A stretch of DNA of 64,000 bases from an uncultured delta proteobacterium (GCA_963716725.1 CAVQUB010000005.1:352001-416000), one strand, 5' to 3'; positions 8,038 to 27,583 are shown, counted from the first letter of the stretch. Translations and numbers: made by a program. The notes: generated from the sequence alone by a model not told the origin.

Positions 8038-8053
8038 GCCCTCGCCCGCGGAG

Positions 8054-8111
8054 TGTCTCGAATTGAGGCAGGCGATCCGGGGTCGCGCGTCGGGTGTTTC
8101 GATCTGAGCCA
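8054..8111. promoter_or_regulatory. Two imperfect palindromes, candidate enhancer-binding-protein sites
   Basis: TGTCTCG-AAT-TGAGGCA (8054-8070) and TGTTTCG-ATC-TGAGCCA (8095-8111), 41 bp apart, upstream of a sigma-54 promoter. Confidence 0.6.
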
Positions 8112-8139
8112 CCCAGCGCGCGGTTTTGCCACCTGCGGG

Positions 8140-8155
8140 TGGCACGACCCCTGCA
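8140..8155 (+). promoter_or_regulatory. Sigma-54 -24/-12 promoter
   Basis: TGGCACGACCCCTGCA versus consensus TGGCACG-N4-TTGCW. Confidence 0.75.
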
Positions 8156-8167
8156 GAGCCTTAGCGC

Positions 8168-9031: not shown

Positions 9032-9049
9032 AGGGCTGGAACGAACGCC

Positions 9050-11371: not shown

Positions 11372-11386
11372 TCGACGACTCCCGAA

Positions 11387-11722
11387 TCACGACTCGCCGA
11401 AGTACTTGTAGAAGAGCGCTTCCTCGTCGCCGCATTCCGACCAGCTGTCACCGACGCAGAGCTGCACGCCGACGTAGCAGTTTTGGATGGAGCCGTGCTT
11501 CGGGAGCATGACCTTGCAACTCCGGGCGGCGCCCTCGGTGCAGAGCTTGGTGTCGCCTTGCTTGGGAGCCGCAGGCTCCGCCTCGTCGGGCATCGCGACG
11601 TGCTCCACCGCGGATTCTGACGGCTCGTCAGGCCCGTCGAAGGGCGCTGGACGTTCCGCCGTGCCGGAGCACGCCAAGAGCATGACAGCACCGATGAATG
11701 CCCACGACTGTGCGATCGACAT
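11387..11722 (-). CDS. Small Cys-rich lipoprotein
   Basis: LLAC lipobox; C-x-EG..C..C..G.Q.C...WSEC motif similar to a segment of the 9050..11371 protein. Confidence 0.75.
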   Translation of the reverse strand: MSIAQSWAFIGAVMLLACSGTAERPAPFDGPDEPSESAVEHVAMPDEAEPAAPKQGDTKLCTEGAARSCKVMLPKHGSIQNCYVGVQLCVGDSWSECGDEEALFYKYFGES

Positions 11723-11734
11723 GCGATGGGCTCA

Positions 11735-11750
11735 AGCAGCCGGCGTGCCA
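11735..11750 (-). promoter_or_regulatory. Sigma-54 -24/-12 promoter
   Basis: Minus strand reads TGGCACGCCGGCTGCT. Confidence 0.75.
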
Positions 11751-11792
11751 TCGCCAATACGCACTGAATTGCGCTTGATCTGGCAGTTAATG

Positions 11793-11964
11793 CGATCCAG
11801 ATTGGGACATCTGAACCGTCCGCCCGTCTCAACCTGAGACGGCTGACTCACCCTGGCATCGCTCTTGCTCGGTGAAGCTCGGGATGGATCGAAACGAGGC
11901 GAAGCGGCGGATAGACTCCGAGATCTCTCCTGCCGGCCTGTCTCACATGTCTCAATCTGCTACA
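11793..11964. promoter_or_regulatory. Cluster of TGTCTCA-N3-TGAGACA-like sites
   Basis: Perfect CCGTCTCA-ACC-TGAGACGG (11824-11842); weaker copies at 11793-11809, 11844-11860 and 11948-11964. Confidence 0.6.
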
Positions 11965-13362
11965 AGGCCCAGCATGCGTCCGGCCGAAAAGCGGGTGGTC
12001 GCCGTGGTGGACGACGATCCCACCACGCGGCGAATTCTCCGCCATTGGTTGGGTGCCGAGGGCTACGAGAGCCGCGAGTTCGCCGACGCCCCGAGCGCCC
12101 TCGCCGCCGACACGCGCGAGTTCGCGGTGGCTTGCGTGGATCTCTCGTTGGGCGAAGCGTCGGGGCTCGACGTCATGAAGGAGCTGCTGGCGCGCGACGC
12201 GGAGCTACCGATCGTGATGGTGACGGCGTCGCAACAAGTGGAGCCGGCGGTGGGCGCGCTGCGCGCCGGCGCCTACGACTACGTGACCAAGCCCCTCGAT
12301 CGTGAGCGCCTGCTTGGGTCGGTGCGCCGCGCGGCCGAGCGACGCAACCTGGCGCTCTCGGTGAGGCATCTCGAGACCGAGCTCCGCGGATCCCGGGGGC
12401 TCGGTGCGCTTGTCGGGTCGAGTTCCGCGCTTCGTCAATTGACCGATCAGGTCGGCCGGGTGCTCGAGAGCGACGTGCCCGTCAGCGTGTTTGGTGAGAG
12501 CGGCACCGGCAAGGAGCTCGTCGCTCGGGCCATTCACGACTCAGGTCATCGCCACGAGGGAGAATTCGTAGCCGTCAACTGCGGCGCCATCCCCCAGGAT
12601 CTCCAAGCCTCCGAGCTGTTCGGTCACGAACGCGGCGCATTCACCGGAGCGCAGTCCCAACATCGCGGGCGCTTCGAGCAAGCCAACGGCGGGACGCTGT
12701 TCCTCGACGAGATCGGGGAGATGAGCGCCAGCACTCAAACCGCGCTCTTGCGTGCGCTGCAAGAGCGGACCATCCAACGCGTGGGCGGACGCACGGACAT
12801 TCCGGTGGACGTCCGCGTCATCTGCGCGACCCACCGCAAGCTCGACGAACTGGTGGCCACGGGACGGTTTCGCGAAGACCTGTTCTACCGGCTGGTCGTC
12901 TTTCCAATTCATGTGCCACCACTGCGGGATCGCCGCAGTGACGTTCCGGAGCTCGTCGTCCACTTCTTGCGCAAGCTCGCGCCGGACACGCGGCGGGAGA
13001 TCAACCGGGTGAGCCCCGAAGCGCTGGACGCCTTGATGAGCTACGGCTGGCCCGGCAACGTGCGCGAGTTGGGAAACGTCCTACACCGGGCCCTGCTCTG
13101 CTGCGATGGTCCTCAGATCGAGCTCGTTCACCTGCCTCGCGAGCTCTGGCGGGGAAAGCAGAGCGAAGTCGCGCCGGCGCCGCGCGTGTCGAAGTCGCTG
13201 CCGGCACCCGCGCCCGAGACCTTTGACTTGTCCCAGATCGAACGGCGCACGATCGAGCGTGCCGTGGCCAAGACCGGCGGCAACATCACTGATGCGGCGC
13301 GCATGCTCGGCATCGGTCGTGCCACGCTCTACCGAAAACTCACGGCGTACTCGGCGCGTTGA
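11947..13362 (+). CDS. Sigma-54-dependent NtrC-family response regulator
   Basis: REC domain (VVDDD, YDYVTKP), [39 protein letters not shown], Fis-type HTH. Start uncertain (11872/11947/11974). Confidence 0.95.
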
Positions 13363-15296
13363 TCGCAGCTATGCTGTTCGCGTTGGAAAAGCGACTGCTC
13401 GATCATCTCCCGGCTCCTGTCGTTTGCGAGGACGGGGAGGGCCGGATCGTTTACACCAACCGCGCGTTTCGCCGGTTGTTCGAGCCCGAGCCTCGCGTCG
13501 AAGAAATGGGCGGTCGCTTCTTCGATCTCGTGGCGCAGCGGGGATCGCTCTTCGTTGACCCTTCGGCCTTCGAGCGGCGGGCCAGTGAACTCCTGGGCAA
13601 GTGCGAAGCCGGCTCGGTTTTCGGCGTGACCCTGAGTGACGGACGCGAGTTCGTCTGTGACTACGTTCCGCTCGGCGACGGGCAGCGGGAGGTGGCTCAC
13701 ATCTGGAGCTTTCGCGACGTGAGTGAGGCACGTCGCGACGCGGCCCTCGCCCGGGCGGCCAGGGACACGAGTGACGCAGCCATCGCCGCCCGAGACGCCT
13801 TTCTCGCGCGAATGAGCCACGATCTGCGCTCGCCGCTGGGAGTCGTGCTCGGGGCCGCGCAGCTCCTGGCCACTGGCGATGCCACTGAAGAGCAGCGCGA
13901 GTCTCTCGAAGGCATCTTCAACTCCGGACAGCTCGTGCTTCGGCTCATTGACGACGTGCTCGATTACTCGAAGCTTCGAGCGGGCCGCTTCGTGTTGGCG
14001 CCCCGAGTCGTCGATCTCTGGGCGCTCTTGGAAGAGGCAGCAAGCACTCTCAAGAGCTCCGCCTCAGCAAGAAGTCTCGCCTTCGAGCATTCGATCGATC
14101 CCGACGTGCCGCGCTGGGCTCGCGTCGATCCGGCGCGACTCCGGCAGCTTCTGATGAACGTGGGCTCCAACGCCATCAAGTACACGGATGCGGGGGCGGT
14201 TCGTCTGCATGCGGCGCGTTCCACCACGGCGGGGGAGCCGATGCTGGTACTTCGAGTCGAGGACACCGGCCAGGGCATCGGCCGGGACACCCTTCCGGTC
14301 TTGTTCGACGCCTACGCTCAGGGGCCGGGTCACGAGTCGAAAGGAACCGGGCTGGGTTTGGCCATCACCCGTGAGTTGGTGGAGTTGATGGGTGGTTCGG
14401 TGCAGGTCGAGAGCGCGCGGGGCATCGGCACGACGTTCACGTGGTCGGTGCGCATCGACCCGGCTCGCCCGAGCCACGTGATGAAGCTCAGCCGGCCGCC
14501 GATGGCAGCCCACGAACCCAGCAGCCACGCGCGCTGCAGGGTCTTGATCGCCGAGGACAACGTCTTCACTCAGGTCATCCTGAGAAAGACCGTCGAGCGC
14601 CTGGGCCACGAGGTCGAGATCGCCCGCAACGGCCTCGAGGTCCTCGATGCGCTCAGCGTGAGCGAGTTCGACGCGGTGCTCATGGATTGCCAGATGCCGC
14701 TGCTCGATGGCTACTCCACGACCGCACGACTCCGTGAAATCGGCTACGGTCGCGCCACCTTGCCGGTGATCGCGCTCACCGCCAGCGCCGTGCCCGGCGA
14801 CCGGGAGAAGTGTCTGCGATCAGGCATGAACGACTACCTGACCAAGCCCTTCACGCTGGCCGAGGTGAGCGCGACCCTCGAGCGTTGGCTGTCGGTAGCG
14901 CCGCGATCGCGACCCTCAGGCTCGTCGCCTCCCGAACAGCCAGAAAGCGACGCCATCGACGTGCGCCGACTCGAAGATCTGAGCGGCGGCGACCGAGACG
15001 TGCTCGCGGACGTGTGCGCGGTCTTCGTCGAAGACATGGGCGCGCGCCTCGAGGAGCTGAAGCGCGCCGCCCAGTGCGAGGATGCGGCCGCGCTACGCCG
15101 AGTCGCCCACGTGGTCGCGGGCTCGGCCTCCAACGTGGGAGCGTGCACGCTCGAGGCCCTGGCTCGCGACGTTGAGCTCGAGCGGGTGCAGCAGGGTGGG
15201 CTCGCCGCGCACGTTGCCGAGCTGGCAACTCAGCTCGAGCGGGCGCGCGCAGCGATGACCCGGCTCTGCGGCGGATCGCTCCCGGGAGGCAGCTGA
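13359..15296 (+). CDS. Hybrid sensor histidine kinase (PAS-HisKA-HATPase-REC-Hpt)
   Basis: MSHDLRSPL, NAIKYT, DTGQG, GTGLGL, LMDCQMP, AHVVAGSASNVG. Overlaps the regulator's stop codon. Confidence 0.93.
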   Translation: MIAAMLFALEKRLLDHLPAPVVCEDGEGRIVYTNRAFRRLFEPEPRVEEMGGRFFDLVAQRGSLFVDPSAFERRASELLGKCEAGSVFGVTLSDGREFVCDYVPLGDGQREVAHIWSFRDVSEARRDAALARAARDTSDAAIAARDAFLARMSHDLRSPLGVVLGAAQLLATGDATEEQRESLEGIFNSGQLVLRLIDDVLDYSKLRAGRFVLAPRVVDLWALLEEAASTLKSSASARSLAFEHSIDPDVPRWARVDPARLRQLLMNVGSNAIKYTDAGAVRLHAARSTTAGEPMLVLRVEDTGQGIGRDTLPVLFDAYAQGPGHESKGTGLGLAITRELVELMGGSVQVESARGIGTTFTWSVRIDPARPSHVMKLSRPPMAAHEPSSHARCRVLIAEDNVFTQVILRKTVERLGHEVEIARNGLEVLDALSVSEFDAVLMDCQMPLLDGYSTTARLREIGYGRATLPVIALTASAVPGDREKCLRSGMNDYLTKPFTLAEVSATLERWLSVAPRSRPSGSSPPEQPESDAIDVRRLEDLSGGDRDVLADVCAVFVEDMGARLEELKRAAQCEDAAALRRVAHVVAGSASNVGACTLEALARDVELERVQQGGLAAHVAELATQLERARAAMTRLCGGSLPGGS

Positions 15297-15380
15297 AGTC
15301 AGCCCGCGCTCGCGCCCGCGGCGCACGCCGCCCTTTTGTGACGGATCGAAGACTGGGCATGAGCTAGCATCAGCATCTCA

Positions 15381-15973
15381 GTGGCTGATCGCTGCGCTTC
15401 CCACGGGCTCGCTCTAGGGCCGGACGGCCGCTGCGTCCTGTGTCGGCGCGAAGCGGACTCGGCATCGAAGTCCGGGGGCGGCGGCAGATCATCACGGACC
15501 ACCGCTGCGTGGGCGACGGTGGGCGTCGTGCTGTTGCTCGGAGCCGGCTGGGCATTGAGTCGGCGGTCGAACGCCGGCGAACCAGGTGCAAAGCGTGAGG
15601 TCGTTCCGCCTCGGTCCGAGCCGGCGGAGCCCGCGGAGCCCGCGGAGCCCGCCGCACCTACGGCGCCCGCCGCTGAGCCGATCCGGCGCGGGCCGGGACC
15701 GGATGACCTGAAGGCTGCGCGACGTTCGGTGCGCGTCACGGTCTACACGACGTCTTGGTGTCCGCACTGTTCCGCGAAGTTGATGTCGTTCGCCCGCAGC
15801 CAGTTGCGTGCGCGGGTGCAAGCGCTTCAGCCCGGCGCGACCGCGATCGCATCAACCCCCAGGGGGGTGTCCCGACGGTCGACATCGACGGACAAGTGTT
15901 GACCGGCTTTGGCGAACAAAACTGGGAGCGGGCCATCGCCAGCGCTGCGCAGCGCCGACTCGAGCCGCGCTGA
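15381..15973 (+). CDS. Membrane-anchored glutaredoxin/NrdH-like protein (frameshifted ~15770-15840)
   Basis: N-terminal C..HG....C..C, TM helix, VYTTSWCPHC; next frame gives INPQGGVPTVDIDG. Confidence 0.7.
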
Positions 15974-16031
15974 TCCGGTGCGGACAGCGACGAGCGCGCG
16001 CCCAGCGGGAGGATCGAGGCCCTGCTCGCCC

Positions 16032-18743
16032 TCACGGCGCTTGCGTCGTCGTGACGAGCGACACGGGCGTCACCAACACATCGCGGGGCGTAGGCCAGAG
16101 GTTCAAGGGAACGATGCTGGGGATGAATGGGCTGACGGACATCGTACACGCGGCCTCACTCAGGCTCACCGAAGCGGACAGCGCGCCGCTCGAGAACGCG
16201 ATGCTGCCGTCCTTGGCGAACGCCTTGAGTAGCCACATGTCGCCTACACTGCTCTTGCCCGCGTTGGAAAATCCTGCCATCAGCGCACCGCCATCGTCCG
16301 TGAGTCGAAGCGTTGGAAGAGTGCTCTCCGGAGGTTGCGTGCCTGCGGCGGTCAGCTGGTAATCCCGAACCCATTGAACCCCGCCTACGGAATCCAGCCC
16401 GGCGCTGAACAGGTGGCTGGTTTCCGGATAAGCTTGGTAGCGCCCGGTCACGACGAATCCGCTCGTGGGTAGCTCGGCAATGCCGCTGATCACGGCGTAA
16501 TCGAAGCCCGACCCGCTCCACGGAAAGCTCGCGAATCCAACGGAACCATCGGGCTTGATGCGCGCGACGAAGCTCCGGAAGTACTGGCCGCCATTGCCGG
16601 CGAGGATCACGTCTCCCGAGCTGTGCACGATGCCCGTGTTGGGGATGAGGTCGGAGATGCTTCCGCAGCCCCCGTGCAAATTGGCGAATTTCACCTCTCC
16701 CGCAGCGTCGAGCGCCAGTGTGAAGCCCTGCCGTTGCACACCGCCCACTTCTTCTGTGAAGCCCGCAATGAAGAGCCCGCCCTGCCACGCGAAGAGCATC
16801 GAAGGCATGAGGTGAAGCGTCGGATGCGAGATGCGCCGCGAAGAGAGAACGATCCCGTTCTTGTCCAGGTGCAGCAGCCAGGCGCCGGTACGGTTCGACT
16901 CGTTGCCCACGTGGTGGGTCGCGACGAGCCAGCTGCCGCCCGCGCCGTCCGCGACGCCACCGGTCCACATCTGGAGTGTGACTTTGTCGCCGTACGGGCC
17001 TCCAAACTGGGTGGGCGCTTCATCAAAAGACTCTCCCCACGCCACGCCGCCACCTTGGCCGATCTTGATGACGGCGTACGGGTGCATCAAGACCAGAAGC
17101 CCTGCGTCCAGAGTGTCGACCACGCGCAGCGCTCGCATGCTCGGCAACACCGGGTCATCGAACATCTCGTAGTGGTTCGCCCACAAGAGCTTGCCTTCCG
17201 GGTTGACCTTGAAGAGAGTCTCCGATTGGCTGCTGGCGAGGGTGTAGTTCCCGTCGATGGTTTGCTCGAGTTGAATCTGTCGTAGGCCGTCGGCGGTCAC
17301 GAAGGGGTAACTCACGAAGGGTGACGAGTAGGTGCGTGACCAAGGGGTGAACGCCGGGTTGAGCAGCGTGTTGTTGTCAGGACCGCTGCCTGGCGGAAGC
17401 GAGGACTGACCCGGCTTTGGCAGCTGGCACGCGCCGCTGGCAATGGACTCGTCGACGATGGGAATCACCAGGTCATCGGTCTTCACCAGCGTGACCTCGC
17501 CGAGCCCCGGCAACTTTGCGCTGATCTTGAAGCCGAGTCGCCCTTCCACTCCGGCATGCAGATCCCAGCAAGGGCTTTGCGACTGATCCGCCGTCAACTC
17601 GGCGTAGGCGTGCAGACCGGCCTTCGGTCCGACGAAATCGTAGAGCCGCATGTGAAGATCGGCGCCAATCGAGGCCTTGGCGGAGGCCGCCAGCGTGACC
17701 TCCGTGGTCGGCGCCGTGAACGATTGGGAATAGGTCGGGGTCTTGAAGCTGGCTCCGTGCCTGCTCGAGAGGGCCACGCCCGCGGACAACGTCGCGTCTG
17801 CCGTGGTCTCCAACGCAAACTGGCTCGAGGCTGCGCCTGCGATCCTGCCGGTGATCTCGACCGACGGAAATATCACCAGGGGACCGATGGGGATCTGAGG
17901 CAAGGGGATGTCGCCGATGGAATAGTCGGCTTCGTACTTCTTGAAGGCAGCCCCCTCGAACGCGAGCTTCGCGTTGAGCTCTCCGCTCATGACCAGGCTA
18001 GCCTTCATTTCGGGGATGAGCGCTGCAATGGAGCAATCGGGCAGCTGGCCGAAAACGACCTCGAGCGCTGCTTCGATGCAGGCCTTCAGCGCGCTGGGAT
18101 ACGCCGCCACTCCACCCCAGTCGATGTCGACGGTCAGCGTGTAATCGAACCCACCACCCAATTCGCCTTTGACACGGACCTGGTCGTCCTTGGTGGAGAG
18201 ATCCTTGTCGCCGTCGAAGGCAACGATGTCGAGCGGCAGCGTCGGATGCTTGCCGCCTGTGTAACTCGCGAAGGGGCGACTCCCCGCCGACAACGGAGTC
18301 AGGTCGTTCTTCAACCAGTCGGAAGCTCCGATCTCCGGCGTCTTCCTGGGGGCGAGCTCGATGTGCAGCTGGCGAAACGCCAGCTGCAGAGGAGCGTTCA
18401 TCGTCGTGATGCGGACGCCCGCCCCGTTGGGCTCGACGCTTCGAACGATGCGCAGCAGGCCCTTTGGCGTGGCCGCGGACTGCCCAGCGACGATGACGCT
18501 GGCGCGCTCGACCTTGGCCAAGGCGCTCGGTGTGGTCTTGAATACGAGGATCCCATCGCCGGTTTCGGGCTCGAGCTGACTGAGCGCGCTCTTGTCGAGC
18601 AAGATCGCCGAGTCGAACAGCTCGTAGCGGATCTTGTCTTTGGTCTTTTCGGGAGCGTCCAGGCCATCGCTGCCCGAGCACGCCAGCGCGGAGATGAGCG
18701 GGATCAGAAGCAAGACCGCGCTTCGGCGAAATCCTTCGGACAT
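16032..18743 (-). CDS. Large lipoprotein with C-terminal beta-propeller-like repeats
   Basis: ALAC lipobox after ATG 18743; recurring K/L-x-x-x-G..W...Y blades in the C-terminal half. Confidence 0.75.
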   Translation of the reverse strand: MSEGFRRSAVLLLIPLISALACSGSDGLDAPEKTKDKIRYELFDSAILLDKSALSQLEPETGDGILVFKTTPSALAKVERASVIVAGQSAATPKGLLRIVRSVEPNGAGVRITTMNAPLQLAFRQLHIELAPRKTPEIGASDWLKNDLTPLSAGSRPFASYTGGKHPTLPLDIVAFDGDKDLSTKDDQVRVKGELGGGFDYTLTVDIDWGGVAAYPSALKACIEAALEVVFGQLPDCSIAALIPEMKASLVMSGELNAKLAFEGAAFKKYEADYSIGDIPLPQIPIGPLVIFPSVEITGRIAGAASSQFALETTADATLSAGVALSSRHGASFKTPTYSQSFTAPTTEVTLAASAKASIGADLHMRLYDFVGPKAGLHAYAELTADQSQSPCWDLHAGVEGRLGFKISAKLPGLGEVTLVKTDDLVIPIVDESIASGACQLPKPGQSSLPPGSGPDNNTLLNPAFTPWSRTYSSPFVSYPFVTADGLRQIQLEQTIDGNYTLASSQSETLFKVNPEGKLLWANHYEMFDDPVLPSMRALRVVDTLDAGLLVLMHPYAVIKIGQGGGVAWGESFDEAPTQFGGPYGDKVTLQMWTGGVADGAGGSWLVATHHVGNESNRTGAWLLHLDKNGIVLSSRRISHPTLHLMPSMLFAWQGGLFIAGFTEEVGGVQRQGFTLALDAAGEVKFANLHGGCGSISDLIPNTGIVHSSGDVILAGNGGQYFRSFVARIKPDGSVGFASFPWSGSGFDYAVISGIAELPTSGFVVTGRYQAYPETSHLFSAGLDSVGGVQWVRDYQLTAAGTQPPESTLPTLRLTDDGGALMAGFSNAGKSSVGDMWLLKAFAKDGSIAFSSGALSASVSLSEAACTMSVSPFIPSIVPLNLWPTPRDVLVTPVSLVTTTQAP

Positions 18744-18919
18744 GCTCCGATCATCGAGCTCGTCGTGGCACTTGGCAAGCGTCCCGCCGGCGGCCGCTCG
18801 CGGCGAGTCAAGTCGAGCGCCAGCTAGGGTTTTTCGGAACACCAGCGAAAGACCTGGTACGACGACCTGGCGGCTAGAACGAAGGTCGATCGCCGGTGGA
18901 AACGCTTCCCCCGTGGCGA

Positions 18920-19321
18920 TCAGGAATTCGTCGAGACATGGCGCCCGAGGCGTGGACTTCTCCGAGAGGTACTGAGTCGACGCGCGACCATCGCGAGCGT
19001 GACGGCGATCATGATCACGCCCACGCCTCCTGCGCCCGCCGCGCCCAGGATTACGGTGACGGTGCGATCGGTGACGTCGCTCACCCGGCCGTCGATCTCG
19101 CACAGCACACGATGATCCGTTCCGTGCTGGCCGGGCTTATACGAGTACTTTTGCTTCGAGATCCGAACCTGGCCCGAGCATACCTGCTCACCTGCCGCGA
19201 CCAACGGGCCCCCCATCATCATCACGACGGCGGCAGCGGCGGCAAACAGCCCCAAGAGCACCGCGACGATGGCCAGCCCTGAAATCATCAGCGTTCGGAG
19301 ATTGACCTGTTGGGGTTGCAT
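18920..19321 (-). CDS. Small two-TM membrane protein
   Basis: Two hydrophobic helices flanking a loop with two Cys. Confidence 0.5.
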   Translation of the reverse strand: MQPQQVNLRTLMISGLAIVAVLLGLFAAAAAVVMMMGGPLVAAGEQVCSGQVRISKQKYSYKPGQHGTDHRVLCEIDGRVSDVTDRTVTVILGAAGAGGVGVIMIAVTLAMVARRLSTSRRSPRLGRHVSTNS

Positions 19322-19650
19322 GAAGGCCTCAGTGTGAGATGGGACCGGTCGCGATCACGACTTCGTCGAAGTAGGTGGACTCGTCGTTGGTGGCAGCCCA
19401 CTCCGCGCCGCCACGATTCCGTCGCGCTGCCCGGGAGCGTTCATCACGAAGTGGTTGCACCCACTCACTCGGAGTGAAGACGCGCTGGCGCAAAGGGGAA
19501 GCGCAAAGGGGAAGTGGACTGTCAAAAGCTACCAGCAACGAACCTACACCCTGCCGTCGGAAGCGCACAATATGAACGTGTGGAACCAGCCTCTTCCGAC
19601 GCTGGCCCGGATGGATTGTGCTCGCGACCAGCGCCGAGCTAGCATCGACC

Positions 19651-20379
19651 ATGTTTAACGTTAGAATCTCGAGACCCATCTGGGCGTTCGTGCTGGTTTC
19701 CGCCGTGGGGTGTTCGGGTGAAGACGCGGCCGGTGGCACCGGCGGTTCAGCTGGCACCGGTGGTTCGGCTGGCACCGGTGGTTCAGCTGGCACCGGTGGT
19801 TCAGCTGGCACCGGTGGTTCGGCTGGCGCCGGTGGTTCAGCTGGCACCGGCGGAGCGGTTGGCACCGGCGGAGCGGTTGGCACCGGCGGAGCGGTTGGCA
19901 CCGGTGGTTCGGCTGGCACCGGTGGTTCGGCTGGCACCGGTGGTTCAGCTGGCGCCGGCCAGTCGGATGGCATCTGCAATACGCAGCCGAACATCGCGCC
20001 CTTCGTGCAGCCCATGAGCGTCGCCGGTACCCCCGACGCCCCGACAGGCGGCACCATCGTAGACGGTACGTACGTCGCCACCTCGGTTTCGAACTACGGG
20101 TTCGGCACAACGGGTCCGCTCGGGAATCCGATACGCCAAACCTGGGTGATCAGTGGGGGCAACACGATCCAGGGCGTGGACCGCTCAGAGAAGTCGGGTG
20201 ATCCAGACCGATCCTACACCCTGTCGTTCACGACCTCCGGAACGGGCTACACCCAGAGCATGAAGTGCCCGAGCGCCAACTCGCTTCCGCTGCTCTCCTT
20301 CACTGCGACGGCGACGGGGTTCACCCTGTTCCAGAGCTCGGGGAGCTACTCGGTGGCGCAGGTGTACACGAAGAAGTAG
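19651..20379 (+). CDS. Lipoprotein with GGSAGT tandem repeat
   Basis: AVGC lipobox, 12 hexapeptide repeats, then a domain containing GGTIVDGTY. Confidence 0.8.
   Translation: MFNVRISRPIWAFVLVSAVGCSGEDAAGGTGGSAGTGGSAGTGGSAGTGGSAGTGGSAGAGGSAGTGGAVGTGGAVGTGGAVGTGGSAGTGGSAGTGGSAGAGQSDGICNTQPNIAPFVQPMSVAGTPDAPTGGTIVDGTYVATSVSNYGFGTTGPLGNPIRQTWVISGGNTIQGVDRSEKSGDPDRSYTLSFTTSGTGYTQSMKCPSANSLPLLSFTATATGFTLFQSSGSYSVAQVYTKK
19741..19956 (+). repeat. 18-bp coding tandem repeat x12
   Basis: Units GGTGGTTC(A/G)GCTGGCACC and GGCGGAGCGGTTGGCACC, encoding GGSAGT/GGAVGT. Confidence 0.95.
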
Positions 20380-20604
20380 CGAAGTCGCTCGCCCGGCTCA
20401 TTCGTCGGCCTCGTCCTCCACCGTCTCCTGCGCCTGGTCCACCCACGAGTGGTCGGTGAAGTCATCGTCGACCTTCGCGGCCTTCTTCCCGGCGTCACCG
20501 CCCGGGTCGACCGCGTCGGTGGCTAGCCAAACCAAACCTGTTGGGCGTGGCCAGGCGAGTGGAGCGCTGGGCAAGAAGTCGACAAATGCAACGTCTTGGG
20601 TCCG

Positions 20605-21705
20605 TCACGGAGGGGATTTGGGACTCCGTGGCGCGCCGAAGTACCGAGCCAGCGCCCGCGCCGCAACGGGATACATCGCCAGTTGCGCGCAGTGATCGCG
20701 CTTGCCACCACCCGCGTAGCCGCGCAAATGGAAGTTTCCGCGATCGAAGAGCTCGATCAGCCGGAGGCCGAGCGCATCTTCGCGCTCGACGGCCAGTGGT
20801 TTTCCGCCGAGCTCCGACGCCAAGAAGTGCATCGTCTCGGTCGTGGACGCGTAGGTGTCCGTGTCGACCGACGAGTGACTCACGAACATGAAGGCTTTGC
20901 CGTCGGCAGCCCGCTCGGCGAAGCGCAAGAAGGGGCCGAGCTGCTTGGGCATCATGGCGGGGTCTCGTGAGCAGTGCAGACCGTCCAGCAAGACGACCGC
21001 ATCGACGCGATCGCGGGACGCCGAGCGCTCGAGGAGCACGCCGATCGCGTCGTAGCCGCCGCTCCACGCGGCGAGCGCAACATGTCGAGCGCGCGCCGGG
21101 CGCCCCGCCGTCTTCGAAGCGACCTGCTCCACTGCGGCGAGCAGTTGGTCCAGGGACTCCGGTCCGCCGAACTCCCCGCGATAGTCCGTCAGCGTCGTGC
21201 CATAGAGCACGAGGGGAACCTCGGCCTCCGCCAGCATGGTCCAGGCTACGTCGTGGCCGTGGAAGATCAGCATGGCGTCGAAGGCGCCGCTCGAGTCGAA
21301 CGCCGAGGGCTCCGGAAACGCCACGTAGCCGCGAGCCGCGATCGACTGCCAAGCACCGAACGCCGATCGCTTTGCCTTGGGCAGCGCGCAAGGGTCGACT
21401 CCCCCGCGTTCCTCTGCCGTGCGCTCGTGGCGGTAGGCTGGATCTGGGCGGGCGGCCACCCAACTCGTGTCGTCCACTGCGCGAGCCGCCGTACCGTGGA
21501 ACGCTGCGTCCCTCGGGCCCAACGCGAACGCAGGTCGCTCCGGAGTCAGTGCATCTTGCACGACGCGTGTCTCCGTCGCGAGCGCGCGCACGCCGCGCCC
21601 GAGCACCAAGGGGATGGGGCGCACGGGACGCTGGAGCCAGGCGACGGCGCCAAGCACGGCACACGCCGCAAGAAGACCGGCGGCAAGAGAGCTGGAGCGA
21701 GCCAT
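20605..21705 (-). CDS. Alpha/beta-hydrolase-like exported protein
   Basis: N-terminal TM, IFHG, nucleophile-elbow-like AAWSGGY, VLLDGLH, late His (RDHC). Confidence 0.65.
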   Translation of the reverse strand: MARSSSLAAGLLAACAVLGAVAWLQRPVRPIPLVLGRGVRALATETRVVQDALTPERPAFALGPRDAAFHGTAARAVDDTSWVAARPDPAYRHERTAEERGGVDPCALPKAKRSAFGAWQSIAARGYVAFPEPSAFDSSGAFDAMLIFHGHDVAWTMLAEAEVPLVLYGTTLTDYRGEFGGPESLDQLLAAVEQVASKTAGRPARARHVALAAWSGGYDAIGVLLERSASRDRVDAVVLLDGLHCSRDPAMMPKQLGPFLRFAERAADGKAFMFVSHSSVDTDTYASTTETMHFLASELGGKPLAVEREDALGLRLIELFDRGNFHLRGYAGGGKRDHCAQLAMYPVAARALARYFGAPRSPKSPP

Positions 21706-22265
21706 GTGCCTGCGCGGACGTTAACACGCGCCGGGCGTGCGCCGAATGCGCGACGTCATCCGATGCGGCTTCACCGCTCGCTCGCCTGGTAGGCGAGGGC
21801 GGCGTGGGATCGCCGTGGGCTGCCACGCACGAGCTGACCCGCAACCAGGGCCGCCGCCACGGTACCGCGCCGGTCGAGCGCGCGCTCCACGTCCTCGATC
21901 AACGCCTCGCTCACGTTGCGATCGTCGTAGAACGCCTGCGCGATCTTGTCCTCGGATCGCTCGGCGTAGAACGCGCCGAACAGCATCTCCCCGAGCCCCG
22001 TGCCCTCGTCGAGGTAGCGCACCCCTCGTGAACGACGCAGCGCCCATTCGCCAACACTCTGGCCAGGACGCGATGAACCCACCTGACGACTACCGTGAGC
22101 ACGCCGCAGTTCTCTGCCCCGACACCGGCCAGTTCAAGTCTTGTTCGGCGCGGATTGCGGAGCGGTAGAATGGCACTTGGCGACTCCTCGCAGACCACCA
22201 CCGCTGGCCCAATACACGTCGCCCGCACTGCACACACATGACCGGAGCCGAGATCCGCAGCGCAC

Positions 22266-22685
22266 ATGAAATGCAAGTCCCCCCTCGCGAAGCAGTGGTT
22301 CGAAATTGAGCGTGTCCTCGCGCCGGCTGTGCGCCGCGAGCAGCACACCGACTCGCGCCCCTCGGTGGATTGGGGTCACATCGATCGCCACGTGCGACTG
22401 GGTGCTCTCGCCATTGGCTGTGCCATGCTCGAGGATGCCGGTCGGAAGGGGGTGGACGAACATGTCGACGTGCTCTTCGAGATCCGGAATGCCCTCATTC
22501 ACAACGCTGGGGACCTTGCGAAGAACAGGAATTCAAGAGCGGTGGACATGGCTCGGACGTATCTTCGAGAGGCCCGCCACAGCTCGCTTTCGACGAACAT
22601 TCCAGCGGCGTTCTTCAGCCTAACCGGCACCGTCGTCACGCTCCAAGCGAACGTGTTCCTCGCACTTCGGATATGCATGCTGTAG
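22266..22685 (+). CDS. Small helical protein with HEPN-like RxxxxH motif
   Basis: LFEIRNALIHNAG. True start may be ATG 22238 (MTGAEIR) with an indel near 22260. Confidence 0.55.
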   Translation: MKCKSPLAKQWFEIERVLAPAVRREQHTDSRPSVDWGHIDRHVRLGALAIGCAMLEDAGRKGVDEHVDVLFEIRNALIHNAGDLAKNRNSRAVDMARTYLREARHSSLSTNIPAAFFSLTGTVVTLQANVFLALRICML

Positions 22686-22708
22686 GCCGCAAGCTCACTA
22701 GGCTCCAC

Positions 22709-23869
22709 ATGGCCATCGACGTCCTCGCCCCGGAATCCGACTTCATCACCGCGTTGACCACAGCATCCGAGTTTCGGAGAGGGCTAGTCCGCGACGGCCA
22801 CGCCGCCGCTTCTCCCGCCGACGCGTTACTGGCGAGCCGCTCGAGTCTCGCGTTGCTGGTAAACACTCTCTTTTGGACGAGCGTTGCCGCCGAGGAGGGG
22901 CGTCCAGTGGTCGGGTCGCTCTGCATTTGCTCACCCGCAGAAGCTCCCCGTTCGCGAGCCTTTGATTCCGCCGTGGCCCTCACATCAAGGAATTTGATCG
23001 CGCTCCTGACGGCATCTCCGGAAGCTCCCCTGGCAGTCCACTTGGAAGGCAAAGACCTGCAGGTCTGGGGCGTTCTCGACTCGAGAACCTTGGGTGGCGT
23101 CAGTCTTCGCATAGGTGGACCTGGGACCATCGTTGCCCTCAAGGATCGAGCAACCGTTGCGCTGCTCCACGAGGGCTGTGTGCACGTTCTCGGAGGGCTC
23201 CCCCACGAGAGCACCGGCCTCGCCCTTCTCTTGATGAATACCCTTGACCCAAAGAACTCGTTTCCGGAGCGGCTGCGACTGGCGAGCAGTCTGACCAAGG
23301 CCGTCGTCGCGATGCACGGTCACCATCATGGGGGAGCCATCGTTATCACTCCCGTGGGAGGCGACGACTGGCGCGAGTCCGTAGACCTGCGCTTCGCCTT
23401 CGCTCCCGCATCGACTCGCGCGCTCGCGGATCCCCCATCGGATCTCGAGCAAGCCAGGTCGGCCGGGAACGCCTGGGTGGCGGATGTCAACGTGGTGGAT
23501 GCCAATCTCGCGATGCTCCACAAGACGCTTCGAGCCGTTGGCCAGCTCACGGCGATCGACGGCGCTGTAGTGTTGACGGAGGATCTCGTCGTGCTCGGCT
23601 TTGGCGCCAAACTCAACTGCCCGGCCGCGAATTTCACGGTGTCTCGGTTCAACGCGACCACTCAAGAACTGCGGCAACACCGCCCCATCTCCGAGGTGGG
23701 TGGAACGAGGCACCAATCCGCGGCGCGCTTCGTTCAAAGGCACCACGAATGCGCCGTGGTGGCCTCATCTCAGGACGGACGATTGACCCTGTTTGCGTGG
23801 GTTCGCGATCCTGGCAACGTTGTTGCGCTCTCCGGACTCGAGCATTTCGTCTGGGGGGAGTTGCTCTAG
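22709..23869 (+). CDS. Diadenylate cyclase (DisA_N/DAC) domain protein with N-terminal putative sensor domain
   Basis: C-terminal HGGAIVI, AIDGAVVL, FGAKL, GGTRHQSA, SSQDG; N-terminal FWTS.AAEEGR motif; no TM or HhH domain. Confidence 0.8.
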   Translation: MAIDVLAPESDFITALTTASEFRRGLVRDGHAAASPADALLASRSSLALLVNTLFWTSVAAEEGRPVVGSLCICSPAEAPRSRAFDSAVALTSRNLIALLTASPEAPLAVHLEGKDLQVWGVLDSRTLGGVSLRIGGPGTIVALKDRATVALLHEGCVHVLGGLPHESTGLALLLMNTLDPKNSFPERLRLASSLTKAVVAMHGHHHGGAIVITPVGGDDWRESVDLRFAFAPASTRALADPPSDLEQARSAGNAWVADVNVVDANLAMLHKTLRAVGQLTAIDGAVVLTEDLVVLGFGAKLNCPAANFTVSRFNATTQELRQHRPISEVGGTRHQSAARFVQRHHECAVVASSQDGRLTLFAWVRDPGNVVALSGLEHFVWGELL

Positions 23870-24443
23870 CCGCCGAACGTGGAGTTTGCCCCACGACGGC
23901 GCTCGATCGCTTCGCTCAGCCCGGAATTCGCGGGACATCACCGGCATCGTAGGTTGCCGAGCATGGCACTGCGATGTGGGGCAACACTCACGATGCTTGT
24001 TGCCGCACTGCCCAGTTGCTGTTCGAGTCCGCCCGACGACGTCGACTCCAACGACGCGGCCGTGATCAGCGACTCCTCGTCGGGCGACGTTGCCGTCGAC
24101 TCGGAGGCGGGCGGCGCAGCGGGCTGTCCCTCCCCCATGCAGTCCCGGCCAGAGACCGCGCGCCGTGCGCCACGGCGCACTTCTTCGAGCACGTTCGCTG
24201 GCGAACACCCACGCGTGGATCGGGCCGGAACCATCGGCGACAGATCGCTCACGGACGTTTGGCGGCCATCCCACAATCGTCGCCCGACCGGGCGCGAAGC
24301 ACCGCCAAACACGTCCGCGCGCTGCGCCGGTGGTCTCATTCTCGCGAGCAGGGGCGGGTCGTTTCTCGCAAGCGTCGAAGCGGTGCGCGTTCGAGGCAAT
24401 CTCCTGCAGTGATCAGACACGCTACATGGCGGGGCCGCCAGCG

Positions 24444-24707
24444 CTACGCTTCGCCCGCAGGAGTCCCTGGTTTTGGGTTGCCCATCTTTGCCTGGACTGC
24501 AACGACTCGGGCGCGCGCATCGGCGTGACTGGGGTCTACCCGCAGCACGAGTTCGAACTCAGCGGCGGCGTCCGCGAACATCCCAATCTCCTGGTAAGCG
24601 ATCCCGAGATCGAAGTGGGTCGCAACGTCGTCGCTCCGCACCTGCTCCTTGATGCCCTGCTTGAACTGCTCGAACACGCTCTTCACGTCTAGCTCGTCGT
24701 TCGCCAC
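24444..24707 (-). CDS. Small TPR protein
   Basis: VFEQFKQGIKEQV..DD..THFDLGIAYQEIGMF.DA..EF; GTG start at 24707 inferred. Confidence 0.65.
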   Translation of the reverse strand: MANDELDVKSVFEQFKQGIKEQVRSDDVATHFDLGIAYQEIGMFADAAAEFELVLRVDPSHADARARVVAVQAKMGNPKPGTPAGEA

Positions 24708-24809
24708 AACCCGTAGTGTCGCACCAGCCCTTCGACTCGACCAGCGACCGCTCCGCTGTTCGACTTGCCGTTCCACCCGTCGAGCGCCGGTCTTCCCCCT
24801 CTCACCCGT

Positions 24810-24833
24810 CCTCCCCCTTCGACAACGCAAACG
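24810..24833. repeat. 24-bp direct repeat, copy 1 (displaced phoU 3' end)
   Basis: CCTCCCCCTTCGACAACGCAAACG, identical to 26893-26916. Confidence 0.9.
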
Positions 24834-24850
24834 TGTGCCGCACCCGTGTT

Positions 24851-24925
24851 GCCCCCCCTCGCCGCCGCTGCGCGGCGTCGGTCCCCCCCAAATTCGCGCT
24901 GTCGCGCGAAAGGGGGGACGCGTTG
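24851..24925. repeat. REP-like GC-rich palindromic element
   Basis: CCCCCCCTC-GCCGC..GCGGC stem, then GTCCCCCC..TTCGCGC-TGTC-GCGCGAA..GGGGGGAC hairpin. Confidence 0.6.
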
Positions 24926-25165
24926 CGCCGAGTTCGTTGGCGGCGTCGTCGAGCGCGTGCGTGCGTGCCCTGTGTTGCTCGCCCCGGCGCGCTGTGCGGG
25001 CCCCGCTCGTTGGCGCACGCTCTGCGCCACGCCGCCCGGTGACGTGAAGCGGAGTGCCGCGCGGGACCGCGAGTGCGCGCAGCAACGTGCCGCAGGCGGC
25101 GCGTCACAGATCGTGCGCCTGGGGTCGCGAAGCCCGCCCATCACGCCGGGTCTTCGGAGGAACCC

Positions 25166-25531
25166 ATGCTCGCTCGTCAACGCACGCAGCTCCGTCGTCA
25201 GCAACTTCTCGCCCAGCGCGCCGCTGAGATGCGTGCGCAGCCCACCCGGTCGGAGGCCGCGCTCTGGGGAGCGCTACGCGCGCGCCGGTGTGGCGTAGAG
25301 GTGCGTCGGCAGGTGGTGCTCGGCGATGCGATCGCGGACTTCGTCGTGCCGTCGGCTCGCTTGGTCATCGAGGTCGATGGGGCGTCCCATCGCACGCGGG
25401 GTGGGGCGGATGCCGCGCGGGACCGCAAGCTCGCGAGGCTCGGCTACCGCGTGCTCCGGCTCGACGCCGAGCTCGTCGAGCGCGCGTTGCCAGAGGCGCT
25501 GGCGTGGGTGCGGGAGGCGCTGGGCGTCTGA
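25166..25531 (+). CDS. DUF559 / Vsr-like PD-(D/E)xK endonuclease
   Basis: GGAGG RBS; MR..PT.SEA.LW..LR, RRQ, IADF, LVIEVDG.SH, D..RD..L...GYRVLR. Confidence 0.9.
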   Translation: MLARQRTQLRRQQLLAQRAAEMRAQPTRSEAALWGALRARRCGVEVRRQVVLGDAIADFVVPSARLVIEVDGASHRTRGGADAARDRKLARLGYRVLRLDAELVERALPEALAWVREALGV

Positions 25532-25637
25532 GCTAGCGCCCGCGGCCGTGTCTGCCGCTGCTCGCCGTCTGCTATTATCGCTATCGCCATCGGCGTTCGA
25601 GGGAGAACGCCAGCCAGGCGGACCATCTGGAGTTGAC

Positions 25638-26426
25638 ATGTTGGTGTTCGAAATCGTGACCCCGGGAACTCGGTTGGATTACGCCGACCGCGCTTGGTCG
25701 TGGAACGTCCAGAATCAACTTCAACTGCTCGAATCACAGTTTTTTGAAGCGAACGCCGCGCTCAATCTGTTCATCGACACGCAGGCCATCCGTCCATCGT
25801 TTGCGCGACAAGACACATGGGAGCGTGACTCGCAACGCCGCGCAGAACTCCAACGTCAGGTCGAAGCGGAACGCGGCGGACTGGGCTCCCACGAACACCG
25901 GGACGAGATGCGTTTTGAGGTCGAACTGCGACTCAAACGCGACAAGTGGGCGAATGGTGGCCTGCCTCGCGAGTTCGAACATAATTTGCCGTTTATCTAC
26001 GCGCGCGCCTTTCTATATGCGCTCGATGTATTCGACAAGGTTCTCGGCGTGCTCGCACAACAATCTGGCGTGCCCACGGACCTCGCAGAGTTTCATGAGC
26101 AGGTCGCGCTAGATTTCCCCAACCTTCGGGGTGTACGCAACACCATGCAACACCTTGAGGATCGCGCTCGTGGGCTGGGCGCAGGCAGGCCCCCGCAGCC
26201 CCTCGATCTAAAGCCGATCGCGAGCAAAGTTATTAGTGCGCCGAGCGGAGGAGCGCTCGTCCTGAACTGCCTGAACGGCACGAAGTATTCTTGCACGATG
26301 TCGGACGGCCACCTTGGCGAGGTTGACGTGTCGCCGGAATCCATGCGGCGTCTCCAATCGATTCTGGAGGGTGTCCTAAAAGCGTTCAAGTGGCGTGGTC
26401 CCAAGCAACACGCACCGGGTACTTGA
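25638..26426 (+). CDS. Cassette-like hypothetical protein with HEPN-like RxxxxH motif
   Basis: FPNLRGVRNTMQHLEDR; visibly more AT-rich codon use; followed by an attC site. Confidence 0.65.
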   Translation: MLVFEIVTPGTRLDYADRAWSWNVQNQLQLLESQFFEANAALNLFIDTQAIRPSFARQDTWERDSQRRAELQRQVEAERGGLGSHEHRDEMRFEVELRLKRDKWANGGLPREFEHNLPFIYARAFLYALDVFDKVLGVLAQQSGVPTDLAEFHEQVALDFPNLRGVRNTMQHLEDRARGLGAGRPPQPLDLKPIASKVISAPSGGALVLNCLNGTKYSCTMSDGHLGEVDVSPESMRRLQSILEGVLKAFKWRGPKQHAPGT

Positions 26427-26465
26427 ACCGAGGACGGCCACGCCGCACCTGCAATGCCGCAAGCC

Positions 26466-26647
26466 GCCTAACATTGATTGCAGGAGTCGGGCGCGTGCCA
26501 GGTGTTCTGTTGATGCCTTCCGCCTGGCGCGCGGGGTTCTGCATCGAGCATCGTACGATGCGTTCGACGCAGCCCGGGCGCCCGCTGCGTGACAGCATCT
26601 AGAAAGGTTGTGCCTGGCGCCCGCTGCTGAACGCCAGGTCGTTGGGC
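26466..26647 (+). mobile_element. Integron attC-like recombination site
   Basis: R'' GCCTAAC and R' GTTGGGC. L arms TT[G]CAGGAG[T]CGGGCGC and GCGCCCGCTGCTGAA pair with two bulged bases. Confidence 0.8.
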
Positions 26648-26657
26648 GGACGACCAG

Positions 26658-26887
26658 ATGCTCTCTGCACGCGAGGCCGACCTCCTGCCCCCTAGTCATT
26701 GCATGAACCTCGGCCTTTGCCTCCTTACCGACGCCCAATCGCGCCTCAAGGAGAATCCCCCGGACAGAGTCACGGAGCTTGTTCACGCCGTGTTCGTCGC
26801 GGGGGGATTGGAATCATCAACCGCAGAGCGTCACCTTCACAGAAAGGTCACCGCCGTGGTCACCGCCGCATTTCGCGTCGGCGCTCC
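26658..26887 (+). pseudogene. Degraded or truncated cassette ORF
   Basis: ATG 10 nt after R'; MLSAREADLL..AVFVAGGLE..; runs without a stop into the phoU repeat. Confidence 0.45.
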
Positions 26888-27583
26888 TCACCCCTCCCCC
26901 TTCGACAACGCAAACGCGTGTCTCACATCCTTGCCTCTCACCAGGAACACCACCATTTCGGCGATGTTGGTGGCGTGGTCGGCCACTCGCTCGAGGTACT
27001 TGGCGATGGATTGCAGACGGGTGGCGCGGAAGACGCTGCCGGAGTCCTTCATCATCAGCTGGAGCAGCTCGGGGAAGAGCTGCGCGTAGTAGGCGTCGAC
27101 TTGGCCGTCGCGCTCGATCACCTCTTCGGCTTGCACGGTGTTGCCGGCGACGTAGGCGTCGAGGGCGTCGTGCAGCATGGCGAGGGCCGCTTCGGCGATC
27201 CGCGTGACGCTCTGGGTCGCGGGCAGCGGGGGCTCGGCAGAGAGCTCGACCACACGCTCGCAGATGTTGACGCCGAGATCGCCGATGCGCTCGAGATCGG
27301 TCACGAGCTTCATGGTGGTGGTGATGAAGCGCAGATCGCTGGCGACCGGCTGGCGTCGGGCCAGGATGCGGAGGCACAGCTGGTCGATGTCGAGCTCGAG
27401 CTGATCGATCTGTCGATCGATGCCGATGGTCGCGTTGGCGGCGGCGGCGTCGCGGTCGACGAAGGCGCGCATCGCCTGGGAGAGCAGCGCTTCGGTGCGA
27501 GCGCCCATCAGCAGCAGGCGCTCCTTCAACTTCTCGAGCTCGGCCTCGTACTCGCGATCGGTGTGTTTCTGTAGCGTGCTCAT
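26888..27583 (-). CDS. phoU: Phosphate signalling protein PhoU
   Basis: [29 protein letters not shown]. Confidence 0.96.
26893..26916. repeat. 24-bp direct repeat, copy 2 (within phoU 3' end)
   Basis: Identical to 24810-24833. Confidence 0.9.

Follow-up and report, generated by a model that had tools for sequence, protein, structure and literature searches.

A DUF559 nuclease gene, a three-block hairpin and spare gene ends at phoU and other loci of an uncultured delta proteobacterium suggest an undescribed mode of DNA insertion at gene ends

The phoU locus and its duplicated gene end

We analysed a window of 64,000 nt from an uncultured delta proteobacterium (GCA_963716725.1 CAVQUB010000005.1:352001-416000), in which a DUF559 nuclease gene and a dispersed hairpin lie between two copies of the 3' end of phoU. 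All positions refer to this whole window unless a contig is named. The host genome, here labelled G000, is a metagenome-assembled genome (MAG) of 7.9 Mb, 84% complete and with 3.9% contamination, and the contig carrying phoU is C5. The phoU gene is intact, and its last 13 codons and stop lie within the current copy of the repeat (Table 1). The other copy, an orphan gene end that reads VRHTFALSKGEDG* on the minus strand, continues no gene. The two repeats frame an insert of 2.04 kb (24844-26886) behind phoU, and the order between them is the dispersed hairpin, the DUF559 gene, an open reading frame (ORF) of 262 aa and 460 bp without assignment. On the far side, the orphan end adjoins a short TPR ORF or fragment, which aligns to positions 873-920 of the 1065-position SgmX model, far below the cut-off.

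Table 1. Features of the phoU locus (window positions) and the other target genes in G000 (contig positions)
Feature	Position	Strand	Remarks
Variable region	15297..26887	.	histidine-kinase gene to phoU, ~11.6 kb; the 2.04-kb insert is nearest phoU
TPR ORF or fragment, short	24444..24752	-	adjoins the orphan end; weak TPR matches
Orphan phoU-end copy	24801..24843	-	24-mer part 24810-24833
Compound three-block hairpin	24846..24924	+	17 genome copies, fold z-scores, three-way covariation
Unit leader, non-coding, conserved	24925..25165	+	ends GGAGG then ATG
DUF559 (Vsr-like PD-(D/E)XK) nuclease gene	25166..25531	+	121 aa from ATG, convergent with phoU
Unit tail	25532..25618	+	small hairpin 25592-25611; homology among copies stops at 25613-25618
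Cargo gene	25638..26426	+	262 aa, function-unassigned; no Pfam, NCBIfam or PADLOC match
Spacer, cargo gene to phoU stop	26427..26886	.	GCCTAAC at 26467 to GTTGGGC at 26647; ORF start at 26658
Current phoU-end repeat copy	26887..26926	-	24-mer part 26893-26916
phoU	26888..27583	-	intact, 231 aa; Pfam PhoU, E 9.4e-46
purC target	C34:137687-138688		orphan ends 143113-143192, 145004-145260 and 150530-150781, each at a hairpin outer edge
Ser/Thr-kinase/AAA/TPR gene	C13:77599-81351		1250 aa; last 117 nt repeated beyond a cargo-less unit
TPR gene	C34:1435-2520		internal 63-70-nt piece repeated beyond a unit with an Mrr-type restriction gene as cargo

The original prediction, made by a model from the sequence alone, described a DUF559 segment of 2.1 kb inserted into the 3' end of phoU together with a replacement C-terminus. 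The 24-bp duplicate on which it rested is present at the two sites listed in Table 1, and both minus-strand translations given for the copies were reproduced. The 24-mer, CCTCCCCCTTCGACAACGCAAACG, occurs only twice across the 7.9-Mb assembly; none of 100 shuffles gave a match even with 3 mismatches permitted. By gapped alignment the likeness extends to ~43 nt (24801-24843 against 26887-26926) with one 3-nt indel. In agreement with the original prediction, no integrase or transposase domain was found in the ORFs of the segment.

The DUF559 unit and its hairpin

The predicted nuclease gene between the copies is matched by PF04480 with 82.3 bits against a cut-off of 20.6 (E 2.8e-23). Its start codon is most likely the ATG at 25166, which stands behind GGAGG, although the ORF caller instead gives a GTG at 25073. 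The protein matches PDB 3hrl ('endonuclease-like protein') with E 6e-10, and a DF..EVDG..H string (IADFVVP..LVIEVDGASH) is kept in all four aligned DUF559 copies and in 3hrl; we take DF...E-x-D-G-x-x-H to be the catalytic signature of the fold. Between the four intact copies the ratio of non-synonymous to synonymous substitution (dN/dS) is 0.22-0.35, which on this comparison shows the DUF559 gene to be under purifying selection. The non-coding leader of 240 nt is 75-78% identical between copies whose DUF559 dS is 0.6-0.9. Being more conserved than the synonymous sites of DUF559, the leader is likely functional; a promoter, an operator or a small RNA might be located there.

When 24780-25700 was used as a blastn query, a family of copies was found whose homology starts at 24832-24850 and ends at 25486-25618. 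The unit thus begins within 7 nt of the last base of the orphan, and the same 7 nt bound the gap between the orphan and the outer edge of the hairpin. The unit, about 0.77 kb long, comprises the hairpin, the leader, the DUF559 gene and a short tail. We examined 35 DUF559 loci, nine from G000, which has nine DUF559 domains in total, and 26 from G002, G003 and G006; a hairpin lies upstream in 23 of the 35, in four genomes. In G002, three or more loci hold sharply bounded units of ~800 bp with 99% identity to one another. These units extend from hairpin block 1 to a tail that resembles a microsatellite, and they point to recent movement of a discrete element. For two of these recent copies, A and D, a position at convergent gene ends was considered and dropped, since no coding-like convergent ORF of at least 100 codons reaches either junction.

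Some side observations were made in G002. At 1.15-1.34 Mb of its contig C1 (L054, L055, L056, L064), two of the ~800-bp units stand head to tail; on the right the unit ends there in a (TCT)n run, after which come CGTGGCGT-like repeats, and in some copies a variant left end, CCCCCGTCTTATGCC, replaces block 1. On contig C2 (16-152 kb, L060-L063) a segment of 2.2-2.8 kb, with a DUF559 gene and ~1.7 kb of the DNA downstream of it, is 98-100% identical at four loci and ends in an IS-like terminus, and may be an insertion sequence carrying a DUF559 gene.

The hairpin was predicted as a REP-like palindrome beside DUF559, and it is indeed a dispersed repeat. It is built from three blocks, of which block 1 is C7 (24852-24858), block 2 is GTCCCCCCC (24881-24889) and block 3 is GGGGGGAC (24912-24919); a small stem-loop (24860-24878) lies between the first two and an inner stem-loop (24893-24910) between the last two. 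The element folds into two stem-loops with one block left unpaired (z -3.5 and -4.5), and none of 200 shuffles folded as well. A profile search of G000 gave 17 copies, five of which have an intact DUF559 domain 282-306 nt further on; the other 12 are solo hairpins with no intact DUF559. Two of the solo hairpins carry the ends of distant genes on their outer side. The one at C5:22.8 kb carries the purC end of another contig (53 nt, 98%) and the one at C13:144.7 kb the end of the kinase gene from 63 kb away (60 nt, 100%), so that orphan ends can travel with hairpins. The flank of a third solo hairpin, C34:147746, was compared with the orphan and the DNA downstream of it; the score of 85 against a shuffle maximum of 83 is suggestive and was not used as evidence. 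An Rfam scan of 24300-27100 gave just a sub-threshold, chance-level match (whalefall-1, 19 bits vs 37).

Covariation was assessed in 29 distinct hairpin copies from four genomes. Blocks 2 and 3 can form Watson-Crick pairs in 26 of the 29, block 2 being GTC followed by six pyrimidines. In 19 of these 26 paired copies block 1 equals block 3 read in parallel by the rule G to C and A to A, at the same offset. The rule spans four sequence classes (C7, CCCCAAC, CCCACCC and CCCCCAC), and in a cross-class control the block 1 predicted for another class was present in 0 of 87 checks. The blocks thus covary as those of a triplex-type motif would. Read on the other strand, a pyrimidine block, a purine block and an antiparallel G/T-rich third block follow one another, an order that reads as the logic of a purine-motif intrastrand triplex.

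Recurrence of the layout at other genes and in other species

In the direction of the target gene, the layout consists of the gene, its current end, optional cargo, an antisense DUF559 gene, the hairpin and an orphan copy of the gene end. It occurs at four targets in G000, namely phoU, purC, a Ser/Thr-kinase gene and a TPR gene (Table 1). At purC a serial array fills ~19 kb up to the Tex gene (C34:138.7-157.9 kb, L047/L048), and nearly all of its ORFs lie on the strand opposite to purC. Their matches include DUF1828, DUF3800 (weak), a TIR domain of CAP12/Pycsar type, ParE, HicB (below cut-off), a methyltransferase, SUFU, DUF6910/DUF6929 and a transposase fragment; arrays of this kind sometimes hold toxin-antitoxin genes and defence-type cargo. 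Among the 17 hairpins of G000, the outer flank is a copy of the 3' part of a gene in eight (phoU 1, purC 4, kinase gene 2, TPR gene 1), consists of nested unit fragments in five and has no second copy in four. As a random control, 39 of 300 random 120-mers have any second copy.

The survey of DUF559 loci for repeated gene ends that the original prediction had proposed was extended over the four genomes: 16 of the 23 hairpin-bearing loci have a repeat of the outer flank downstream of DUF559, and in seven of them this repeat takes in the stop codon of a convergent ORF of at least 100 codons. The duplications measure 43, 53, 63-70, 80 and 114-270 nt and ~1.15 kb. The claim that DUF559 and its palindrome make up a mobile unit is borne out to this extent, the unit being discrete and multi-copy, with an outer edge that repeatedly abuts the spare 3' end of a convergent gene.

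The purC site is variable in the genus: G000, G002 and G003 have an occupied site, G004 and G006 a plain one. G002 has an 80-nt duplication and no cargo there, and G003 a 53-nt duplication. In G004 and G006 no orphan was found within 3.1 and 4.6 kb, respectively, and DUF559 is not nearby; the purC loci of G001 and G005 are cut by contig ends. As a separate observation, positions 6434-20000 of the G003 segment C6:150001-170000 (L051) hold four tandem blocks of 3.2 kb, each combining a DUF559 unit with ~850 nt from the 3' portion of a TPR gene. The TPR-gene copies are still open and differ by 17-19% from the expressed copy, and the blocks look like a store of alternative C-termini.

Such blocks raise the idea that orphan 3' ends in general would be silent cassettes, that is, gene-conversion donors for swaps of the C-terminus, with DUF559 as the initiating nuclease. 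The long, open and divergent TPR orphans of G003 speak for it, as does the homologous TPR gene that is also a target in G000. At phoU and purC, however, the copies are only 13-19 codons long and encode nearly the same residues, and the phoU orphan has lost a genus-invariant Ala, as would be expected of a decaying copy. We therefore consider silent cassettes very improbable as a general explanation.

REP and REPIN sequences are short dispersed palindromes that lie downstream of genes and are tied to a RAYT transposase gene. On an account of this kind DUF559 would not be the agent; a REP-like hairpin would settle downstream of convergent genes, perhaps by the action of a Y1/RAYT protein in trans, and the duplications would be products of tandem amplification or normal homologous recombination at variable hot spots into which DNA of relatives keeps arriving. 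The 12 solo hairpins, the long tandem arrays in which control segments are repeated too, the recent G002 copies that have no flank repeats, and the two PF01797 Y1 transposase genes (RAYT or IS200-like) on C5, at 165.6 kb and 499.5 kb, are all in keeping with it; the Y1 genes are more than 120 kb from any C5 hairpin, and action on the hairpins in trans is possible. It speaks against the account that hairpin, leader and DUF559 are conserved together at fixed spacing, that the 0.8-kb unit moved in G002 includes the DUF559 gene, that the orphan always begins at the outer edge of the hairpin at four different genes, and that DUF559 is under purifying selection. The system also differs from REP/RAYT pairs in its partner, a PD-(D/E)XK-type DUF559 and not a Y1 protein, in its one-sided hairpin and in its long gene-end duplications. 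On balance we think it unlikely that DUF559 is a bystander.

Which phoU end is native

The original prediction took the orphan copy as the ancestral end of phoU and the current end as a recoded tail supplied by the element. The codons that it cited were confirmed: AGA occurs twice within the last 17 codons of phoU, and the orphan has CGG at the only one of these positions that it keeps. Across five window genes AGA accounts for six of 188 Arg codons, including two in the current phoU tail. Moreover, the codons CTG, AGA, GAT and AGA of the current tail are each found in none of six genus relatives, which use ATG, CGN and GAC, and the orphan CGG matches G003 and G004.

Several observations weigh on the other side. 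The orphan has Thr at a genus-invariant Ala and one extra codon, and solo hairpins can take orphan ends along to other loci. The last 15 codons of phoU are no more divergent than codons 41-55 (0.87 vs 0.89 differences per codon). In addition, a contig from wastewater run X7 (matching window 26882-26983) carries a phoU end that is ~90% like the window with an identical 24-mer; it has AGG at both Arg positions, Leu and GAC, and the match ends 6 nt past the stop. This could be a differently occupied or an empty allele. The evidence on the ancestral phoU tail is split, the rare codons of the current tail and the genus-like CGG of the orphan favouring the orphan, and the Thr, the extra codon and the X7 contig opposing it. 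Recombination between a copy borne by the element and the chromosomal end would make hybrids of both copies, and the crossover point would set which part is native. At purC of G002, the plain ends of other species resemble the orphan (..EEPIGRMRRNLRLAG*, IGRMRRNL) more closely than they do the current end (..EEPIARMRRSLGLAG*, IARMRRSL).

The region downstream of phoU in relatives

In six same-genus genomes the PhoU protein is 89, 88, 87, 85, 83 and 74% identical to that of G000, and in all six the DNA homology to the window stops at the phoU stop. DUF559 is near phoU in none of these relatives, and phoU is occupied in G000 alone. The comparison that would set both repeats against a single copy found that the phoU tails of relatives align in the coding sequence only, the downstream DNA being unrelated; no relative joins a phoU end in ..SKGEDG to the TPR ORF, the empty site that the original prediction had proposed to look for. 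When JGI metagenome contigs were scanned for exact copies of the 24-mer, none was found. In G001 and G005, the histidine-kinase and NtrC-type genes that occupy 11.9-15.3 kb of the window sit 0.7 and 2.3 kb from phoU, so that ~11.6 kb (15297-26887) is variable in G000.

In gene-3'-end islands, incoming DNA restores the gene end and leaves direct repeats at both borders, whereas integron cassette arrays line up small defence or toxin-antitoxin cargo serially downstream of one anchor gene. The phoU insert might be the remnant of an integrase island with a lost or trans-acting recombinase and an attP copying the phoU 3' end; on this view one copy would be attL, the other attR, and DUF559 a passenger. 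Direct repeats that overlap a gene 3' end and share an identical core are typical of att scars, ~11.6 kb downstream of phoU are variable against G001 and G005, and tyrosine recombinases (PF00589) have 19 matches elsewhere in the genome. None of these 19, however, is on C5, C13 or C34, the ORFs of 15.3-26.9 kb contain no recombinase or transposase domain, and serine recombinases (PF00239) were not found in the G000 genome. There is also no fixed att core, the layout being present at four targets of unrelated sequence, where the repeats range between 43 nt and ~1.15 kb, and the junction is always the hairpin edge of a DUF559 unit. Compared with islands and integrons, then, the contigs have no integrase, both the repeat length and the target vary and no common attC-like site is seen. 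We regard an island remnant as quite unlikely.

Further upstream in the variable region, two ORFs on the minus strand, 16032-19103 (1023 aa) and 20605-21705 (366 aa), match no Pfam, NCBIfam or PADLOC family. At 22266-23869 (+), an ORF of 139 aa with a weak PADLOC match to DRT-associated HEPN (RTasHEPN, E 5.7e-4) overlaps the start of an ORF of 499 aa that carries a DACNV sensor domain (E 7.7e-13) as well as a weak match to a DAC domain of DisA type (E 1.8e-5, below cut-off). To judge from these matches, the two are possibly a nucleotide-signalling conflict pair.

The cargo side of the phoU insert

Between DUF559 and phoU the sequence changes in character. The cargo region has 58-61% GC against 70-74% in the unit, and homologues of the 262-aa gene, with 37-72% identity, were found in nine genomes of other lineages, none with DUF559 nearby. 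The DNA likeness between the gene and eight homologous loci ends at the end of the ORF. The gene therefore looks widely exchanged, and 1.27 kb of the insert appears cargo-like and of foreign origin. The homologues (L077-L085) are from MAGs and isolates labelled Gammaproteobacteria, Sulfuriferula, Rhodoferax, Ramlibacter, Desulfuromonadales, Syntrophales and Methylomirabilia.

The claim that the unit picked up cargo is supported in this form, whereas its wording as integron cassettes is not. The heptamers at 26467-26647 do correspond to the integron-like ends RYYYAAC and GTTRRRY, 181 bp apart, and 26455-26655 folds at -50 kcal/mol, a value without shuffle control; the presumed attC (integron site), judged without a curated attC model, was nevertheless rejected, since it has no second copy in the genome and is not conserved at the eight homologous loci. 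A HEPN assignment for the 262-aa gene was likewise given up: it had only the string RNTMQH in its favour, searches of Pfam, NCBIfam and PADLOC were empty, and ESM Atlas gave unnamed clusters (best score 0.96). The ORF at 26658, predicted to be a truncated gene, has no family and no homologue among longer proteins, which is weak evidence.

Assembly support

We considered whether the locus could be a chimeric join made at a short repeat during assembly. The completeness and contamination of the MAG leave some room for this, as does the hairpin, itself a repeat, which no contig listed crosses. The junction between cargo and phoU, on the other hand, is bridged without any difference by contigs of two independent studies (26697-27052 and 26844-27206), and one contig of a public run joins the TPR ORF to the orphan (24343-24851). 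No contig listed skips 24844-26887 and joins across it, although a gap in cover proves nothing, and the best-matching public run may be the source sample of the MAG. With the same layout in four other assemblies, an artefact seems scarcely credible.

Proposed route of insertion and its limits

Given the observed architecture and its recurrence, the selection on DUF559 and the covariation within the hairpin, we favour, with moderate confidence, a nuclease-linked, homology-dependent insertion of the unit and its cargo at the 3' end of phoU with a long target duplication. DUF559 would nick or cut at or near the target end or the hairpin. Entry could then follow one of two routes. In the first, a gene-end copy borne by the element would serve as a homology arm for ends-in or Campbell-like integration; in the second, widely staggered nicks followed by fill-in would give the duplicated end. 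Either would leave the gene end on both sides of the insert as a long target duplication of variable length. Repeated entry at one gene would produce arrays, and cargo would gather between the 3' end of DUF559 and the new gene end. The variable length of the duplications, the unrelated targets and the lack of recombinases on the contigs together argue against a transposase or a dedicated integrase.

A number of results weigh against this reading of the locus. The phoU duplication has just 24 identical bases, and no empty phoU allele was found by blastn and tblastx over 8-20 kb downstream of phoU in G001-G006, G008 and G021, in all of which likeness to the window ends at the phoU end. Of the 16 positive loci, nine are longer duplications or tandem arrays, and in five of the nine array loci the repetition includes a control segment taken 1 kb further out; ordinary tandem amplification could contribute there. 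The flank has no downstream repeat in seven of the 23 loci, including two of the 99%-identical G002 units, which implies that duplication is not obligatory. The cargo gene has its homologues elsewhere without DUF559, C5 carries the two Y1 transposase genes, and the hairpin is bridged by none of the contigs listed. Finally, no nuclease activity or cleavage site of any DUF559 protein was found in the literature listing.

Relation to known systems

The closest parallels to a nuclease gene behind a duplicated gene end come from fungal mitochondria. In the mORFs of Allomyces (atp6) and Glomus (atp6, atp9, cox2, nad3), an inserted C-terminal is followed by an endonuclease gene and then by the native C-terminal, and mobility is ascribed to cutting of ORF-less alleles by the encoded nuclease (Beaudet et al. 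2013, PMC3630166). The mORFs share with the phoU insert a free-standing endonuclease gene at the 3' end of a housekeeping gene, a tail supplied in frame and a displaced tail downstream. They differ in that their nucleases are LAGLIDADG or GIY-YIG and not DUF559/Vsr-like, and in that they run in the direction of the host gene, often in phase, whereas the nuclease gene here is convergent; nor are a hairpin module, cargo or arrays reported for them. The test of whether the native tail is nearer to relatives was decisive for the mORFs, in contrast to the split answer given by the 43 nt of phoU (PMC3630166).

Restriction-modification (RM) units have been reported to insert with long target duplications, with repeats of 46 to ~420 bp, some over gene 3' ends, and no other mobility gene (Furuta, Abe and Kobayashi 2010, PMC2853133). 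RM units resemble the phoU insert in being shorter than 20 kb, in having no transposase or integrase, in their genome-unique direct repeats and in the nuclease inside. The phoU insert would be classed with them by its size (2.04 kb, below 20 kb), by having no other mobility gene and by its repeat of ~43 nt (above 30 bp, with a 3-nt gap and 24 identical). RM units are, however, pairs of R and M genes, for which no common non-coding module is reported, and for every RM case a sister genome provides the kind of empty site that is missing for phoU (PMC2853133). The DUF559 unit also differs from them as one small unit that is found at many sites and forms arrays.

The hairpin itself recalls the BoxC/PIT/TMECO repeats, intrastrand-triplex repeats of E. 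coli and other bacteria that have been tied to locally raised genetic variability; no transposase or integrase is reported beside the repeats and no partner protein is named (Holder et al. 2015, PMC4666352). Both kinds of element have three G/C-rich blocks with Y-R-R logic and are intergenic, dispersed and highly conserved (PMC4666352). The TMECO consensus as given there, CCCTCNCCC N3-6 GGGNGAGGG N3 GGGNGAGGG, is nevertheless matched neither by C7/GTCCCCCCC/GGGGGGAC nor by the three other classes, and the present hairpin is set apart by loops of ~20-24 nt that are themselves stem-loops, by four block classes and by a DUF559 gene at a fixed distance.

Among the full-text matches listed for DUF559, judged by their titles and abstract openings, none deals with mobility, and no published account was found of a DUF559-hairpin module that duplicates gene ends. 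The DUF559-hairpin layout beside spare gene ends suggests a route of DNA insertion that has not been described. A broader proposal, which we put forward only tentatively and do not yet hold to be probable, is that DUF559 and the triplex-type hairpin constitute a widespread, undescribed class of bacterial mobile element that needs no transposase or integrase, enters gene 3' ends through a nuclease break and a carried gene end, and, by entering repeatedly, builds integron-like arrays of defence and toxin-antitoxin genes downstream of housekeeping genes.

If true, this would give a mobility role to DUF559, a large family, and would add a third route of island building, by a nuclease and homology at gene ends, beside integrases and transposases. 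It would explain some of the "integrase-less" hot spots of defence and toxin-antitoxin genes. The triplex-type repeats, which are reported to have had no known function since the 1990s (PMC4666352), would be affected as well, in that the long-orphan BoxC/PIT/TMECO repeats would gain a protein partner, and with a specific nuclease at hand their function could be put to the test. For annotation, gene 3' ends beside DUF559 may be hybrid, and spare gene ends nearby would be scars, not genes.

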